From Escherichia coli (lineage in GTDB: Bacteria; Pseudomonadota; Gammaproteobacteria; Enterobacterales; Enterobacteriaceae): a stretch of 64,000 nucleotides of DNA. Made by a program: the position numbers and the translations under genes. The notes beneath the pieces were generated by a model. It saw only the letters and a program-made list of their open reading frames with translations, searched no databases and was not told the origin of the DNA. The DNA is taken from assembly GCF_044324875.1 (NCBI RefSeq), contig NZ_CP172185.1; one strand, written 5' to 3'. Below are positions 6,203 through 58,991 of this stretch, piece after piece; position 1 is the stretch's first letter; every line of letters begins with the position of its first letter.

Positions 6203-6429
6203 ACGCCCCCCTGAATATATCAGAAATGCTAGTATCGAAAAATGAGAAAACAGTTAGACAGGAGAAACATATTAACACAAATCATTTATACCTATAGATG
6301 AAATTATAATTTCATTCATGAATATGATAGATAACTATATTGTGAACAAAATGAAAAATGGCTAAATTAAAAATGGGCATGGAGGAATGCCTCGTAATCA
6401 GTAATACATGATCCATACTTCCTTGTTTT

Positions 6430-6455
6430 GCCCGCCGGAAAGCGGGCATTTTTTT
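6430..6455 (+). terminator. Intrinsic terminator, copy 2 (hairpin identical to copy 1)
   Basis: gcccgccggaaagcgggc + T7. Together with copy 1 it forms a near-identical ~30-bp direct repeat flanking the AT-rich islet. Confidence 0.75.
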
Positions 6456-6657
6456 GGCGGTTACCATCGCCTCACCTTCCTGGTTCACACAAAGCAACCC
6501 TGATTTTCCATGAAAACTTCAGGGTTGAGCCAAAAGCACAAAGACAGTAGATTAACCAAGGGTACCCGCCACCTGCCAACAGGAACGGTATCCAGTACGT
6601 ATTAATGACTGACAATTCACATTGCTGTTTTGCCCGCCAGAAGGTGGGCATTTTTTT
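6456..6657 (+). repeat. Repeat unit B: paralogue of units A and C, ending in terminator copy 3
   Basis: Aligns by eye with unit C over about 200 bp. Contains a degenerate ogr 3'-end-like segment (ttcaca...gattttcc). Confidence 0.6.
6632..6657 (+). terminator. Intrinsic terminator, copy 3 (gcccgccagaaggtgggc + T7)
   Basis: GC stem-loop followed by a T-run. Confidence 0.7.
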
Positions 6658-6861
6658 GGCAGTTATCATGGACGCACCTTCATGACACATATTAAGCAGA
6701 CCTGATTTTTCCATGAAAAATTCATGGTTGAGACAAAAGCACAAAAACAGTAGATTAACCACGGGTGCCTGCCACCTGACAACAGGAAGGGGTGTCCATT
6801 ATCCATGATATACAAACGAAAAGTCTTGTCTTTTGCCCGCCGTTGCGCGGGCTTTTTTTTT
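6658..6861 (+). repeat. Repeat unit C: paralogue of units A and B, ending in terminator copy 4
   Basis: Same architecture as unit B. Confidence 0.6.
6835..6861 (+). terminator. Intrinsic terminator, copy 4 (gcccgccgttgcgcgggc + T9)
   Basis: GC stem-loop followed by a T-run. Confidence 0.7.
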
Positions 6862-7340: not shown

Positions 7341-9845
7341 ATGTCACAAACTATCGACCTGACCCTGGACGGCCTGTCCTGCGGTCACTGCGTTAAACGC
7401 GTGAAAGAAAGTCTCGAACAGCGCCCGGATGTTGAGCAGGCGGATGTGTCTGTCACTGAAGCGCACGTTACCGGGACTGCCAGTGCAGAACAGCTGATCG
7501 AAACCATCAAACAAGCGGGTTATGACGCATCTGTAAGCCACCCAAAGGCTAAACCGCTGGCGGAGTCATCAATCCCGTCGGAAGCACTGACAGCGGTTTC
7601 TGAGGCGCTTCCGGCAGCGACCGCCGATGACGATGACAGCCAGCAGTTGCTGCTGAGCGGCATGAGCTGCGCCAGCTGTGTCACCCGCGTACAAAATGCG
7701 TTGCAAAGCGTACCGGGCGTCACTCAGGCACGGGTAAACCTGGCGGAGCGTACTGCGCTGGTGATGGGCAGTGCCTCCCCACAAGATTTAGTGCAGGCGG
7801 TGGAAAAAGCGGGCTACGGCGCGGAAGCGATTGAAGATGACGCTAAACGCCGCGAGCGCCAGCAGGAAACCGCCGTCGCTACGATGAAGCGCTTCCGCTG
7901 GCAGGCAATTGTCGCACTGGCGGTGGGTATCCCGGTGATGGTCTGGGGGATGATCGGCGATAACATGATGGTCACCGCTGACAACCGCAGCTTGTGGTTA
8001 GTTATCGGCCTGATAACCCTGGCAGTGATGGTTTTCGCCGGCGGCCATTTTTACCGTAGTGCATGGAAAAGCCTGCTGAACGGTGCAGCGACGATGGATA
8101 CGCTGGTGGCGCTGGGTACTGGCGTGGCGTGGCTCTATTCGATGAGCGTCAACCTGTGGCCGCAGTGGTTCCCGATGGAAGCGCGACATCTTTATTACGA
8201 AGCCAGCGCGATGATTATCGGTCTGATCAATCTCGGTCATATGCTGGAAGCGCGCGCACGTCAGCGTTCTTCAAAGGCGCTGGAGAAATTACTCGATTTA
8301 ACCCCACCGACGGCGCGCCTGGTCACCGACGAAGGTGAAAAAAGCGTGCCGCTGGCGGAAGTGCAGCCAGGTATGTTGCTGCGCCTGACGACCGGCGATC
8401 GCGTGCCGGTAGATGGCGAGATTACCCAGGGCGAAGCATGGCTGGATGAAGCGATGCTGACGGGCGAACCAATCCCGCAGCAAAAAGGCGAAGGCGATAG
8501 CGTCCATGCCGGGACAGTGGTACAGGACGGCAGTGTGCTGTTTCGTGCCAGTGCGGTCGGCAGCCATACTACGCTGTCACGAATCATTCGCATGGTGCGC
8601 CAGGCCCAGAGCAGCAAGCCTGAAATCGGCCAACTGGCGGATAAAATCTCCGCTGTGTTTGTGCCGGTGGTGGTAGTCATTGCGCTGATCAGTGCGGCAA
8701 TCTGGTATTTCTTTGGTCCGGCACCGCAGATTGTCTATACCCTGGTGATTGCCACCACGGTGCTGATTATCGCCTGTCCGTGTGCGCTGGGACTGGCGAC
8801 GCCGATGTCGATTATTTCGGGCGTCGGGCGGGCGGCTGAGTTTGGTGTGCTGGTGCGGGACGCCGACGCGCTGCAACGCGCCAGTACGCTCGACACCGTG
8901 GTGTTCGATAAAACCGGGACGCTGACCGAAGGGAAGCCGCAGGTTGTCGCAGTAAAAACATTTGCTGATGTTGATGAAGCGCAAGCATTGCGTCTGGCGG
9001 CGGCGCTGGAGCAAGGTTCCAGCCACCCGCTGGCACGGGCGATCCTCGATAAAGCAGGTGATATGCAGCTACCGCAGGTCAACGGTTTCCGCACATTGCG
9101 CGGGCTGGGTGTGAGCGGTGAAGCTGAAGGTCATGCGGTATTGCTGGGCAATCAGGCGCTGTTAAATGACCAGCAAGTTGATACTAAAGCGATTGAGGCA
9201 GATATTTCAGCTCAGGCATCGCAAGGTGCAACGCCTGTGCTGCTGGCGGTTGACGGGAAAGCGGTAGCCCTGCTGGCTGTACGCGATCCGTTGCGTAGTG
9301 ATAGCGTGGCGGCGCTGCAACGCCTGCATAAAGCGGGATATCGTCTGGTGATGTTGACCGGGGATAACCCAACCACCGCCAATGCGATCGCCAAAGAAGC
9401 AGGGATTGATGAGGTGATAGCCGGCGTGCTGCCGGACGGTAAAGCCGAAGCGATCAAACGTCTTCAAAGTGAAGGACGTCAGGTGGCAATGGTGGGCGAC
9501 GGCATTAACGATGCGCCAGCGCTGGCTCAGGCGGATGTCGGTATTGCGATGGGTGGCGGCAGTGATGTTGCCATTGAAACCGCGGCGATTACCCTGATGC
9601 GCCATAGCCTGATGGGTGTTGCAGATGCGCTCGCGATTTCCCGCGCAACGCTGCGCAATATGAAGCAGAACCTGCTCGGTGCGTTTATCTACAACAGCAT
9701 TGGTATTCCGGTCGCCGCCGGTATTTTGTGGCCGTTCACTGGAACACTGCTTAACCCGGTGGTTGCCGGAGCGGCAATGGCGCTCTCGTCGATTACCGTA
9801 GTGAGTAACGCCAACCGGTTACTGCGGTTTAAACCGAAAGAGTGA
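7341..9845 (+). CDS. copA: Cu(I)-translocating P-type ATPase
   Basis: 834 aa. Two N-terminal CxxC metal-binding domains, CPC motif, DKTGT phosphorylation site. Confidence 0.97.
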
Positions 9846-53449: not shown

Positions 53450-53848
53450 TTACTTAACCATCTGCTCGAGCTTTTCGCGCAATTCCCCTTCCAGAGCTAA
53501 TGCTTTCTGCGTTTTAAGATCAATACAAACAAACGTAATAAGCGCATCCGCTACCACCTGCCCTTCCGGCTCCAGTGTAATGACCTGGCTTAAGATGCCG
53601 CTTTTACCGTTTAATTGCTGCAACTGACTGGTAATGGTTAACAGGTCGCTTAATACCGCCGGGCGACGATAGTTAATATTGATATTGACCACGACGAAGG
53701 CGATGTTATGGGCCGTCATCCACTGAAAACTGTCGCTATTTTCCAACCCATCCCAGCGGGCTTCTTCGAGAAACTCCAGATAGCGGGCGTTATTAACGTG
53801 CTGGTAAACATCGAGATGATATCCACGAACTTTGATTTGTGTTTGCAT
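53450..53848 (-). CDS. fadM: Long-chain acyl-CoA thioesterase III
   Basis: 132-aa ORF matching FadM. Confidence 0.94.
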   Translation of the reverse strand: MQTQIKVRGYHLDVYQHVNNARYLEFLEEARWDGLENSDSFQWMTAHNIAFVVVNININYRRPAVLSDLLTITSQLQQLNGKSGILSQVITLEPEGQVVADALITFVCIDLKTQKALALEGELREKLEQMVK

Positions 53849-54092
53849 AGCGCAATAACCTTACGTTGTTTTTATAAAAACTGTTATAAGTGCAAAATGG
53901 CATCTGAATCGATCGCAGTTTGGCATTCGAATCGATCATGATTTGGCATCCATCTCCGATCACAGTTTGGCATCACAATCGATCACGATTTGGCATGCTT
54001 CCGATCATTGATTGGCATCCTGCCAGTCACTCCGGGAATTAACTCTTTTCACCACAGTCTCCATTGCCGTGTTTAAACCAGTGGAGACGTCA

Positions 54093-55658
54093 ATGTCCAG
54101 AAAGAGAAAATCCAGGAGCACTATGGAAACCTGTTTTAAGATCCTTCAGCTCAAGTTCGACAAGAAGCTGACTAACCGTTGTATCGGACTGACGTTACAC
54201 ATCAGCGCCTCAACCGTTTTTGAGGTTCTTGCCCGCTTCAAAGCCTCTTCTCTGTCATGGCCATTACCTGCTGATATATCCCATGACACGCTGGAGAAAC
54301 TCATTTTTCCGCCCAAAGACACCTTTGCATCAGAGCTTGTAATGCCTGACATGTTGTACTTCGATACGGAAATGAGAAAACCAGGTGTGACGCGGCAACT
54401 GTTGTGGATGGAATACAAGGCACAGGCGGGTAACAAAGCGATGGGATACTCGCACTTCTGCCGTTGCTACCGGGAGTGGAAAAAAACGCGACGTCTCTCC
54501 ATGCGCCAGGAGCATCGTGCCGGCGAAAAGCTTTTTATCGACTTCTGTGGTCCTACGGTTCCTGTTATTAATCCGGACACCGGTGAGATACGCCGCGTGG
54601 CAATCTTCGTGGCCGTAATGGGGGCGTCCAACTATACCTACGTTGAAGCGTGCGAAGGTCAGGACATGATGTCATGGTTAAATGCCCACAGCCGTTGCCT
54701 GACCTTCCTGGGCGGCGTACCGAAGCTGCTCATCCCCGATAACCTCAGAAGCGCAGTGAAAAAGGCCGATCGATATGAGCCTGTCATCAACGACAGTTAT
54801 CAGGCACTGGCTGAGCACTATGGCACGGTTATCATCCCGGCCCGACCACGCAAACCTAAAGATAAACCAAAAGCAGAAAACGGCGTCCTCATCGTTGAAC
54901 GATGGCTTCTTGCCCGCATCCGTAATGAAACCTTCCACACGCTCAGGGCGCTGAATGCGCGCCTTAGGGAGTTACTGACAGACATGAATAACCGGCCAAT
55001 GAAGGGGTACGGCAATCAAACCCGTGCAGAACGCTTCCGCATACTGGATGCGCCAGCACTCTCTCCGCTGCCTCTGGCACCTTATGAATACACGGAATAC
55101 AAAGCTGTGAAGGTTGGCCCTGACTACCACGTTGAATATGCCCGTCACTGGTACTCCGTTCCACACGAACTGGTCGGTCAGCGTCTGTCACTGAAGGCGG
55201 GGCAGTCGGTGGTACAGCTCTGGCACAAGGGGCAGTGTGTGGCGCAACATCCGCGCAGCACACATGAATATAAACACACAACCAATCCGCTTCACATGCC
55301 AGAGCGCCACCGGCAGCACGGGACATGGACACCGGAACGCCTGATCGAGCAGGGAAAACGTACGGGCCCGTCCACAGGCCGGGTGGTTGAATCCATGCTG
55401 AAGGCAAAACCCCATCCGGAACTGGCTTATCGTGCAGTTCTGGGGCTGCTGGCACTTCAGAAAAAATACGGCCCGGAACGGCTGGAAAAGGCCTGTTACG
55501 TTGCCCTGCACTATAACGCCCCTGACAGACGCTTTATCGACAATCTGCTGCGTCACCATCGGGAGAACCTGGAGCTTCCATTATCCCGCCAGGGCGAACA
55601 ACATCCGGCATATGCTTCAGAGCATGAAAACCTGCGTGGTCCGGGCTACTACCACTGA
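54093..55658 (+). CDS. istA: IS21-family transposase IstA
   Basis: About 521 aa from ATG 54093. N-terminal HTH followed by an integrase-like catalytic core. Confidence 0.85.
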   Translation: MSRKRKSRSTMETCFKILQLKFDKKLTNRCIGLTLHISASTVFEVLARFKASSLSWPLPADISHDTLEKLIFPPKDTFASELVMPDMLYFDTEMRKPGVTRQLLWMEYKAQAGNKAMGYSHFCRCYREWKKTRRLSMRQEHRAGEKLFIDFCGPTVPVINPDTGEIRRVAIFVAVMGASNYTYVEACEGQDMMSWLNAHSRCLTFLGGVPKLLIPDNLRSAVKKADRYEPVINDSYQALAEHYGTVIIPARPRKPKDKPKAENGVLIVERWLLARIRNETFHTLRALNARLRELLTDMNNRPMKGYGNQTRAERFRILDAPALSPLPLAPYEYTEYKAVKVGPDYHVEYARHWYSVPHELVGQRLSLKAGQSVVQLWHKGQCVAQHPRSTHEYKHTTNPLHMPERHRQHGTWTPERLIEQGKRTGPSTGRVVESMLKAKPHPELAYRAVLGLLALQKKYGPERLEKACYVALHYNAPDRRFIDNLLRHHRENLELPLSRQGEQHPAYASEHENLRGPGYYH

Positions 55659-55674
55659 CAGAAGGAACAACAGT

Positions 55675-56430
55675 ATGAGTGATAACCTGTTAAACAAACT
55701 GACCCAACTGAAACTCCCGGCGATGGCCGGGAGCCTGATACGGCAGCGGGAAACGCCTCAGACCTACGACGAACTGTCGTTCGAGGAAAGGCTGACGCTG
55801 CTGGTTGATGACGAGCTTCTGAGCAGGGAAAACAGCCGTGTGGCACGGTTGAGAAAAAATGCCGGCCTGAAATACCAGGCAACACCGGAAGGGCTGCGCT
55901 ATCCGGCCTCAAGAGGTCTGCGGGCTGAACAGATGAGAGAACTGCTGAACGGCCACTACATAACCCACAGGAAAAACCTGCTGATAACCGGTCCGACAGG
56001 ATGTGGCAAGAGCTGGATAGCCAATGCGCTGGGCGAACAGGCATGTCGACAGAAACACAGCGTCCGGTACTGTAGAACCGGGCGATTACTGGAACAACTG
56101 GCTCAGGGACGTGTTGATGGCAGCTGGCTGAAATATCTGAAACAGTTGCAAAAAATACAGGTTCTAATCCTGGACGATCTGGGGCTGGAACAGTTAAGTA
56201 ACGCCCAGTGTAATGACCTTCTGGAGCTCATAGAGGATCGTTACGGACAAAGCAGCACGATAGTGGTAAGCCAGTTCCCGGTAGATAAATGGCATGGTCT
56301 GATGGAGAACCCAACAACAGCAGATGCCATCCTGGACAGACTGGTACATAACTCACACCGAGTGGTCCTTCAGGGAGAGTCACTGAGGAAAAATCCCCCG
56401 GTAGTGGAAAGCAGCGAAAAAACGCGTTAA
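55675..56430 (+). CDS. istB: IS21-family ATP-binding helper protein IstB
   Basis: 251 aa from MSDNLLNKLTQLKLP. Walker A (GPTGCGKS) and Walker B (ILDDLG). Starts 17 nt after the istA stop. Confidence 0.88.
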   Translation: MSDNLLNKLTQLKLPAMAGSLIRQRETPQTYDELSFEERLTLLVDDELLSRENSRVARLRKNAGLKYQATPEGLRYPASRGLRAEQMRELLNGHYITHRKNLLITGPTGCGKSWIANALGEQACRQKHSVRYCRTGRLLEQLAQGRVDGSWLKYLKQLQKIQVLILDDLGLEQLSNAQCNDLLELIEDRYGQSSTIVVSQFPVDKWHGLMENPTTADAILDRLVHNSHRVVLQGESLRKNPPVVESSEKTR

Positions 56431-56545
56431 AAAGCGGTAGAAAAAGTTAAGTTCCCGGTTGATCGAATGGATGCGAATCGCTGATCGGACTTCGATGCCA
56501 ATCCGTGATCGAATAGAGCGGAATACGCAATAAGTACAGAGGTCA

Positions 56546-58991
<2,446 letters not shown>

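Follow-up and report, generated by a model that had tools for sequence, protein, structure and literature searches.

An ISSso4-type IS21-family insertion sequence with multi-unit terminal arrays in the fadM-ybaV spacer of Escherichia coli

In a 64,000-nucleotide stretch of Escherichia coli DNA (contig NZ_CP172185.1; hereafter the window), some 2.6 kb of sequence bordered by tandem repeats separates fadM from ybaV, which raises the question of what this DNA is, what its repeats are for and how its presence affects the two neighboring genes. We interpret it, with high confidence, as a complete and presumably active insertion sequence (IS) of the ISSso4 type that recently entered the spacer, duplicated the pentanucleotide ATAAG and likely uncoupled fadM. 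The element itself is a known, widespread and already catalogued IS, copies of which are routinely annotated by PGAP. Its insertion at this site is a strain-specific marker that probably changes one gene.

The element, its genes and its name

The termini of the element read TGCAAAATGG...GGAATACGCA, with ATAAG on both flanks (Table 1). The first-pass annotation had described an IS21-family element encoding IstA and IstB, with TG...CA ends and a 5-bp ATAAG direct repeat, at positions 53886-56534; this description holds and the span is real, except that these coordinates include both copies of the duplication, the element proper covering 53891-56529. IstA scored 284.6 bits against the NF033546 profile (transpos_IS21; cutoff 160) and harbors the Pfam domains rve and Mu-transpos_C_2, while IstB scored 257.8 bits against NF038214 (IS21_help_AAA; cutoff 200), both above the curated cutoffs. 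The open reading frames and translations bore out the announced lengths (about 521 residues for IstA and 251 for IstB) as well as the Walker A (GPTGCGKS) and Walker B (LILDD) motifs of IstB. The istB gene lies directly 3' of istA, after a gap of 16 nt. A second in-frame istA start codon with its own Shine-Dalgarno sequence is found at 54123; it would yield a 511-residue protein and is the start chosen by PGAP. No RNA family was detected in or beside the element with Rfam. The two protein profiles, the TG...CA ends with 23-bp repeats, the short duplication and the mobility documented below identify an IS21-family insertion sequence with intact IstA and IstB.

Table 1. Features of the element and of its surroundings (coordinates in the window)
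Feature	Coordinates	Strand	Remarks
fadM (long-chain acyl-CoA thioesterase)	53450..53848	-	Intact 132-aa ORF; annotated fadM in empty-site genomes
Left target-site duplication ATAAG	53886..53890	.	Single copy in empty-site genomes
Complete ISSso4-type IS21-family insertion sequence	53891..56529	+	2,639 bp, 5'-TG...CA-3'
Left terminal array, units L1-L6	53891..54029	+	Six ~23-bp units (half-sites TTGGCAT, CGATCA); inferred IstA binding sites
Conserved box CCGGGAATTAACTCTTTTC	54032..54050	+	Just inside L6, inverted copy inside R3; inverted repeats kept in relatives
istA (transposase)	54093..55658	+	521 aa from ATG 54093; ORF list, profile search
istB (AAA+ helper ATPase)	55675..56430	+	251 aa; profile search, translation
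Right-end copy of the conserved CCGGGAA..TTAAC box	56440..56458	-	
Right terminal array, units R3-R1	56460..56529	-	Three units, in register with L1-L3
Right target-site duplication ATAAG	56530..56534	.	
Hairpin downstream of ybaV	56538..56562	-	Perfect 10-bp stem, terminator-like; overlaps the FadR-operator match
Predicted FadR operator AACTGGTATGACCTCTT	56547..56563	+	Two mismatches to the consensus
ybaV (helix-hairpin-helix protein)	56598..56969	-	Intact 123-aa ORF; 3' end faces the right end of the element

ISSso4 is on record from Shigella sonnei genomes and from plasmids of E. coli, among them pCT. At the DNA level, our element shows 96.3% identity to a copy on S. sonnei pFORC11.1 (98 nucleotide differences), both genes of which are labeled ISSso4 by PGAP. 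The two share nearly the same length (2,638 bp in S. sonnei vs 2,639 bp), gene order, termini and layout of six left and three right units. The name ISSso4 calls for at least 95% nucleotide identity to the ISfinder reference. For isoforms, ISfinder uses a level of roughly 98% amino-acid identity, and the values for IstA (97.5%) and IstB (97.2%) fall slightly below it. PGAP names our IstB "ISSso4 family" and our IstA only generically "IS21 family". Whether the IstA/IstB pair has an ISfinder counterpart, on which the first-pass annotation had made its identification depend, was judged through these labels rather than the ISfinder reference: the PGAP name of IstB and the ISSso4-annotated copy indicate that it does. 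We accordingly treat the element as a probable ISSso4 isoform, a name resting on PGAP labels and on the S. sonnei copy.

The insertion site and its neighbors

When the element and one ATAAG are removed in silico, a 199-bp junction is obtained that is 100% identical to that of many E. coli genomes. This reconstructed empty site was present in 5,423 of the 5,426 complete E. coli genomes, many of them matching at 100% identity, and the occupied site in none (0/5,426). Comparison with uninterrupted fadM-ybaV junctions, proposed in the first-pass annotation, hence gave exact restoration, and ATAAG is single-copy there as had been anticipated. Among sequenced E. coli, the insertion in this spacer is private to the source strain.

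The FadR operator consensus is a 17-bp palindrome, aaCTGGTCnGACC(T/A)Gtt, and in fad promoters the sites bound by FadR usually overlap with the -10/+1 region (PMC9329746). The match listed in Table 1 is the sole one in the 64-kb window, with 0 expected by chance. Since the element stops 42 bp upstream of the fadM start codon on its left side and 12 bp downstream of this match on its right, fadM is probably uncoupled from its operator and promoter, from which 2.6 kb of oppositely transcribed DNA would now separate it. Judged from this arrangement, the most likely outcome is lowered fadM expression and loss of FadR control. The ybaV gene, with respect to its own direction of transcription, is situated upstream of the insertion and is unlikely to be affected. 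The earlier suggestion that the insertion separates both genes from their regulatory regions therefore stands for fadM, split from the FadR-operator match, and probably not for ybaV. FadM is a FadR-regulated thioesterase that clears stalled β-oxidation intermediates. With its gene probably severed from the operator, this strain may show altered fadM expression and grow differently on certain unsaturated fatty acids.

It is also conceivable, if unlikely, that fadM is activated or left unchanged, either by an outward promoter in the left end of the element, which may be weak and non-consensus, or by read-through from the native promoter. Creation of hybrid promoters is documented for the IS21 family (PMC9330008), and the plus strand of the repeat units contains TTGGCA, which is close to the consensus -35 hexamer. 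However, the known outward -35 of IS21 resides in the right end, which here points away from fadM, and no sigma-70-like promoter was predicted at the left junction on either strand. Scans for consensus sigma-70 promoters across the element, its junctions and an empty-site genome returned no site for istA, for fadM or for a hybrid promoter. Read-through from the native promoter would have to cross five terminator-like hairpins, all of them within the element and on the fadM-sense strand. The 2.6 kb of untranslated antisense RNA thus produced would in addition be exposed to Rho termination, which counts against this route.

Terminal arrays and mobility

The left array comprises five strong units and a degenerate L6 (TTGGCAT...CAGTCA), with a period of 23 according to TRF. 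The motif GGCAT-N5-7-CGATC occurs six times in the window, every time inside the ends of the element, against a chance expectation of 0.65; none of 100 shuffles reached six. The period and this enrichment sustain the initial description of about six ~23-bp left-end repeats. The right end, initially credited with two inverted copies, turned out to contain three units in register with L1-L3, the outer half-site of R1 being degenerate. In IS21, the ends carry direct repeats 23 bp apart, two of which are needed per end, and insertions produce 5-bp duplications (PMC10122671); the tandem 23-bp units of the element fit this multi-repeat, transposase-binding type of end (PMC10122671).

The layout of six left and three right units is kept in relatives down to 79% identity, and half-sites are better conserved than linkers across species of five genera (94.4% vs 83.3%, p=0.001). 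In E. coli and Shigella elements L6 reads CAGTCA for CGATCA, and one whole unit is gone in Rahnella. Within the ISSso4 clade, repeat number changes by whole units. A scan of species-representative genomes with the exact 36-nt left tip gave no match; a degenerate two-unit pattern then hit Klebsiella indica, Serratia sp. DD3 and Rahnella, at five loci in total. A Pectobacterium relative that seemed about 290 bp longer was set aside, its surplus consisting of assembly-gap Ns.

GATC sequences occur in the left array at element positions 21, 44, 68, 91 and 113, and in the right array 66, 44 and 20 nt from the tip. Eight of the 13 GATCs of the element thus fall within the ~210 bp of its termini, inside repeat units. 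Because units contain Dam GATC sites and the surplus units L3-L6 separate the core sites of the transpososome from istA, the arrays might act as a methylation-sensitive operator that couples end synapsis or the expression of transposase to passage of the replication fork, as known from IS10 and IS50, a mode of control not described for the IS21 family. We consider this reading improbable; a literature search for a link between Dam methylation and IS21-family elements found nothing relevant.

Could the element instead be a dead relic, its left array being decaying or expanding junk rather than a set of functional protein-binding sites? The degenerate L6 and the unit missing in Rahnella are compatible with this, as is the fact that IS5376 needs just two units per end in vitro. 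Against it, both open reading frames are intact, and 100% identical copies are spread over many different sites, on chromosomes and plasmids of E. coli as well as in E. fergusonii and Salmonella, with a separate duplication at each. Full copies were found in 225 of the 5,426 complete E. coli genomes, in up to 23 places per genome, and 21 of 23 surveyed copies were bordered by their own target duplication. Drift of a useless array also fits poorly with half-sites that outlast their linkers over five genera. Moreover, three to seven left units, of entirely different motifs, persist in relatives whose IstA identity is 48% at most, which favors selection acting on the array as such. Altogether, the relic explanation appears improbable.

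The duplications of 21 other copies range from 4 to 7 bp, within the short span of about 4-8 bp expected of the IS21 family. No obvious target consensus emerged among 22 duplications, which, like their flanks, average ~47-51% AT. This variability in length matters for IS-calling tools that assume one fixed value.

A repeated IS contig misplaced in the spacer during assembly is very improbable. The site is occupied in no other complete E. coli genome and IS copies do collapse in assemblies, as illustrated by a stand-alone 2,636-bp contig of strain ESDR8 that consists of just this element. Nevertheless, a misjoin would not leave behind a target duplication whose length suits the family, and here the duplication is perfect, stems from a single-copy sequence in empty sites and leaves, upon removal, a junction at 100% identity.

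Lastly, a CRISPR-like or iteron-like feature independent of transposition, superficially evoked by the regular spacing, conserved core and variable linkers, can be practically dismissed, in line with the first-pass annotation, which had noted the resemblance and preferred IS21-type sites: each unit spans 23 bp, with linkers of only 5-8 bp, where CRISPR arrays have repeats of ~23-47 bp and unique spacers of similar length, and cas genes are usually close by; the period of 23 is exactly the IS21-family spacing; no cas or replication genes are present among the open reading frames; and the array belongs to a terminal inverted repeat, is mirrored by inverted units at the opposite end and accompanies the element to every site.

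Proposed mechanism and comparison with known systems

For an active ISSso4-type element, a transposition scheme can be drawn by analogy with the cryo-EM structures of IS5376. IstA would be a DDE transposase with N-terminal helix-turn-helix (HTH) domains, an rve core and a Mu-type β-barrel, binding the 23-bp-spaced units at both ends. A tetramer seated on the two outermost units of each end would bring about synapsis and cutting at the terminal CA. The AAA+ ATPase IstB would capture and bend target DNA, a bending by IstB that has been described (PMC11208146), and activate strand transfer. The inner units L3-L6 and R3 are probable accessory IstA sites that may help recruit or sequester the transposase. 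They may also occlude a weak istA promoter region, as IstA binding in IS21 ends occludes promoter elements there (PMC10122671).

The element resembles phage Mu and Tn7 in the several transposase-binding repeats of its ends, unequal in number from one end to the other, and in the pairing of a DDE transposase featuring tandem HTH domains and a β-barrel with an AAA+ target-selecting partner (PMC10122671). It differs from them as a simple two-gene IS with no known accessory enhancer, host-factor site or target-immunity function.

With IS21 and IS5376, the element shares the istA-istB operon, TG...CA ends, 23-bp-spaced repeats, short duplications and an AAA+ helper. The paired in-frame istA starts resemble the transposase/cointegrase pair of IS21, whose two forms differ by 8 residues. 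IS21 has an outward -35 in its right end, whereas the sigma-70 scan of the native ends of our element gave no promoter-like site at either end. IstA is also longer (511-521 residues vs about 400 in IS5376), and six left and three right units contrast with the two per end (L1/L2 and R1/R2) drawn for the prototypes, including IS5376. Duplications of 4-7 bp, compared with the fixed 5 bp of IS21 and IS5376, might reflect a looser target stagger than in the structural model.

The size of IstA places the element alongside a subgroup of long-IstA relatives, namely ISPpu7, ISPre4-like elements, ISAs29, IS408 and ISEc12, whose IstA proteins (~505-518 residues) align over their full length at 42-48% identity; the plasmid collection yielded no intermediate relatives, at protein identities from about 80% down to 48%. 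Members of this subgroup likewise display period-23 left arrays (three to seven units), with left units outnumbering right ones, while their unit motifs are unrelated to those of the element, for example ATTCCACG...TCCGGACA in ISPpu7. The left end had initially been called unusually repeat-rich. This is correct against the textbook IS21 and IS5376 and incorrect within the element's own subgroup, where four to seven left units are usual, and we dropped the description in view of the comparable arrays of ISPpu7, IS408, ISAs29, ISEc12 and a P. rhodesiae element. As far as these sequences indicate, a multi-unit left array is normal for long-IstA members of the IS21 family.

Element and insertion site

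The spacer between fadM and ybaV carries a complete IS21-family element, whose genes and boundaries had been correctly drawn in the first-pass annotation, as judged from the open reading frames, the profile scores, the Pfam domains and the presence of ATAAG on both sides. IstA scored 284.6 bits against the NCBIfam model 'IS21 family transposase' (cutoff 160) and combines an rve core with a Mu-transposase C-terminal beta-barrel according to Pfam, and IstB scored 257.8 bits against 'IS21-like element helper ATPase IstB' (cutoff 200).

Features of the fadM-ybaV region (window coordinates)
Feature	Coordinates	Strand	Remarks
fadM	53450-53848	minus	
Left target-site duplication	53886-53890		ATAAG; read from sequence
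Element	53891-56529	plus	2,639 bp; begins TGCAAAATGG, ends GGAATACGCA; read from sequence
istA	54093-55658	plus	521 aa; ORF scan
istB	55675-56430	plus	251 aa; motifs GPTGCGKS and LILDD; ORF scan
Right target-site duplication	56530-56534		ATAAG; read from sequence
Perfect 10-bp-stem hairpin	56538-56562		just downstream of ybaV; overlaps FadR-operator match
FadR-operator match	56547-56563		AACTGGTATGACCTCTT; 12 bp beyond right duplication
ybaV	56598-56969	minus	

Two in-frame ATGs ten codons apart (54093 and 54123), each preceded by a Shine-Dalgarno sequence, could open istA, and both are kept in all relatives (Shigella, Pectobacterium, Klebsiella indica, Serratia and Rahnella). The second, chosen by PGAP in identical copies, yields 511 aa; only this shorter form is annotated. 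The double start recalls, by analogy, the transposase/cointegrase pair of IS21, which differs by eight N-terminal residues. Two copies in Serratia sp. DD3 share the same ~1.34 kb insertion inside istA (~6111-7453 in L021, ~1369-2711 in L023), probably a nested mobile element, which begins directly after codon 4 of the long form.

An empty site was reconstructed by deleting the element and one ATAAG, and the resulting 199-bp junction was searched in 5,426 complete E. coli genomes. As anticipated from the sequence, the uninterrupted junction is restored: it is present in 5,423 of the 5,426 genomes, many at 100% identity, and always lies between fadM and ybaV in the matching genomes. When the element with 500 bp of flank on each side was used as the query, none of the 5,426 reached the 80% coverage threshold. 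The insertion is thus derived, precise and private to the strain among complete genomes. Misassembly is very unlikely, as it would not leave a sequence that other genomes hold in single copy perfectly duplicated.

The element itself is widespread: many chromosomes and plasmids of E. coli, largely those of poultry and environmental isolates, match it at 100%, and E. fergusonii and Salmonella plasmids do so at 99.7-100%. Full-length copies occur in 225 of the 5,426 complete E. coli genomes, with as many as 23 places in a single genome, and in a large assembly collection 12,539 indexed blocks contain the identical IstB. Any match at all was found in 1,778 genomes, only 225 of which hold a near-complete copy; many E. 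coli genome and plasmid records contain fragments such as positions 1-1295, and several plasmids only the last 33 bp, which suggests that truncation is frequent or that the remnants are old. In E. coli ESDR8, a stand-alone contig of 2,636 bp (NZ_JBXSPU010000008.1) equals the element minus 3 bp; it is either a product of repeat collapse during assembly or the IS in circular form.

PGAP names IstB 'IS21-like element ISSso4 family helper ATPase', and a 2,638-bp copy on an S. sonnei plasmid, both genes of which bear the ISSso4 name, is 96.3% identical (IstA 97.5%, IstB 97.2% at the protein level). ISSso4 is an ISfinder entry known from S. sonnei and from E. coli plasmids such as pCT. From the PGAP labels and the similarity to the S. 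sonnei copy, we call the element a probable ISSso4 isoform. The first-pass finding of an IS21-family element was correct and is well described, and the insertion sequence is an already known one with the usual behavior of its kind.

Terminal repeat arrays

The left end has a period of 23 (Tandem Repeats Finder). Anchoring on the GATC core places units at element positions 21, 44, 68, 91 and 113, with a sixth near 135 whose core is degraded to CAGTCA (L1-L6, numbered inward from the tip). Each unit joins half-sites TTGGCAT and CGATCA across 5-7 variable bases. The same anchoring identifies three units at the right end (R1-R3; 20, 44 and 66 inward from the tip), where two inverted copies had initially been counted, an undercount. 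R1 is degenerate in its outer half-site. A conserved box, CCGGGAA(n)TTAAC, follows both arrays. All six occurrences of the motif GGCAT-N5-7-CGATC in the 64-kb window fall within the element's ends; 0.65 would be expected by chance, and none of 100 shuffles reached six.

The layout of six left and three right units is the same in the S. sonnei copy and is kept in relatives from Pectobacterium (~82% identity), Klebsiella indica (79%) and Serratia sp. DD3 (80-86%), in all three of which L6 fully matches the motif. The Rahnella woolbedingensis relative (L024, 354-600) lacks exactly one 24-bp unit, L3, so that repeat number shifts by whole units within the clade. Across five genera, half-site columns are 94.4% pairwise identical versus 83.3% for linker columns (Mann-Whitney p = 0.001), the pattern that protein-binding sites would show. 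In published work, an IS21 end consists of several direct repeats ('usually at least two') at 23-bp spacing; in vitro each end needs two, the HTH domains of IstA bind R1 and R2, and promoter elements within the ends are occluded by IstA binding (PMC10122671, PMC11208146). Both the conservation and this literature uphold the first-pass reading of the left array as multiple transposase-binding sites, and we regard its units as putative IstA sites. A CRISPR-like array was rejected, the units being read as IstA sites and a 23-bp spacing being typical of IS21 ends.

The clade is isolated by protein, its next relatives showing at most 48% IstA identity; their left ends also bear period-23 arrays, with 5 units in ISPpu7, 4-5 in both the P. 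rhodesiae element and ISAs29, about 7 in IS408 and 3-4 in ISEc12. The left end is therefore unusually repeat-rich when set against textbook IS21 examples, but six units are normal within the long-IstA subgroup (3 to ~7), of which a repeat-rich left end is a conserved trait.

Each strong repeat unit (window 53891-54007 and 56460-56529) has a Dam site, GATC. The terminal arrays (~210 bp of termini) hold 8 of the element's 13 GATC sites, a density of ~38 per kb versus 4 per kb in the window. Units of ISEc12 and IS408 also contain GATC, whereas those of ISPpu7 do not. A literature search on the IS21 family and Dam methylation found no link.

Elsewhere in the window, a ~200-bp tandem duplication (6424-6791; two copies, 80-89% identical) lies upstream of an 834-aa ORF (7341-9845); each copy starts at a GC hairpin and T run that resemble a terminator, and no Rfam family matches the duplication.

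Probable consequences for fadM and ybaV

The left end of the element lies 42 bp upstream of the fadM ATG, and istAB run opposite to both neighbors. Beyond the right duplication, AACTGGTATGACCTCTT differs by two mismatches from the FadR palindrome, aaCTGGTCnGACC(T/A)Gtt (PMC9329746), and is the sole such match in the window, where none is expected by chance. It overlaps the hairpin downstream of ybaV, so that one sequence may serve as both ybaV terminator and fadM operator. Because fadM is repressed by FadR, whose sites in fad promoters usually overlap the -10/+1 region (PMC9329746), the element would lie within the fadM promoter or else within the first bases of its transcript; with either placement, the fadM coding sequence now lies 2.6 kb from the putative operator.

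No sigma-70-like promoter was predicted, either within the element or at the junctions. The outward -35 known from IS21 belongs to the right end, and in this insertion that end points away from fadM. Five terminator-like hairpins inside the element are all on the fadM-sense strand, antisense to istAB (window 54884-55880, minus), the six such sites in the scanned region not being significantly above shuffles (mean 3.1). With moderate confidence, we infer that fadM expression would be reduced and FadR-independent. ybaV should be unaffected, since the insertion lies downstream of it in the direction of its own transcription and it retains the hairpin. What is locally new is only the private insertion site and the likely uncoupling of fadM from FadR.

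Transposition and target duplications

By analogy with IS5376, the structural (cryo-EM) model of the family, and with the prototype IS21, an IstA tetramer would bind the two outermost units at either end and then synapse the ends, the target DNA would be bent by an IstB decamer, and strand transfer would then proceed with a short stagger. The inner units (L3-L6 and R3) sit between the core sites and istA and might, more tentatively, be accessory sites that recruit or sequester transposase or allow autoregulation. The promoter scan of the element located no istA promoter.

We surveyed 23 E. coli/Shigella copies at different sites (L001, L002, L004-L013, L025-L034 and the window copy), all with unambiguous TG...CA boundaries. 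Two oppositely oriented copies, L026 and L029 (GCA_027278235.1, contig JAPWXX010000001.1, ~0.97 and ~1.38 Mb), lack a duplication of their own; their flanks, CACAGG and GTCATT, are reciprocally swapped, which indicates a ~413 kb inversion via recombination between them. Target duplications measured 4 bp (n=1), 5 bp (n=7), 6 bp (n=8) or 7 bp (n=5), and the K. indica relative adds one more of 5 bp. This 4-7 bp range differs from the uniform 5 bp of IS5376 in vitro, whose model assumes a fixed 5 bp.
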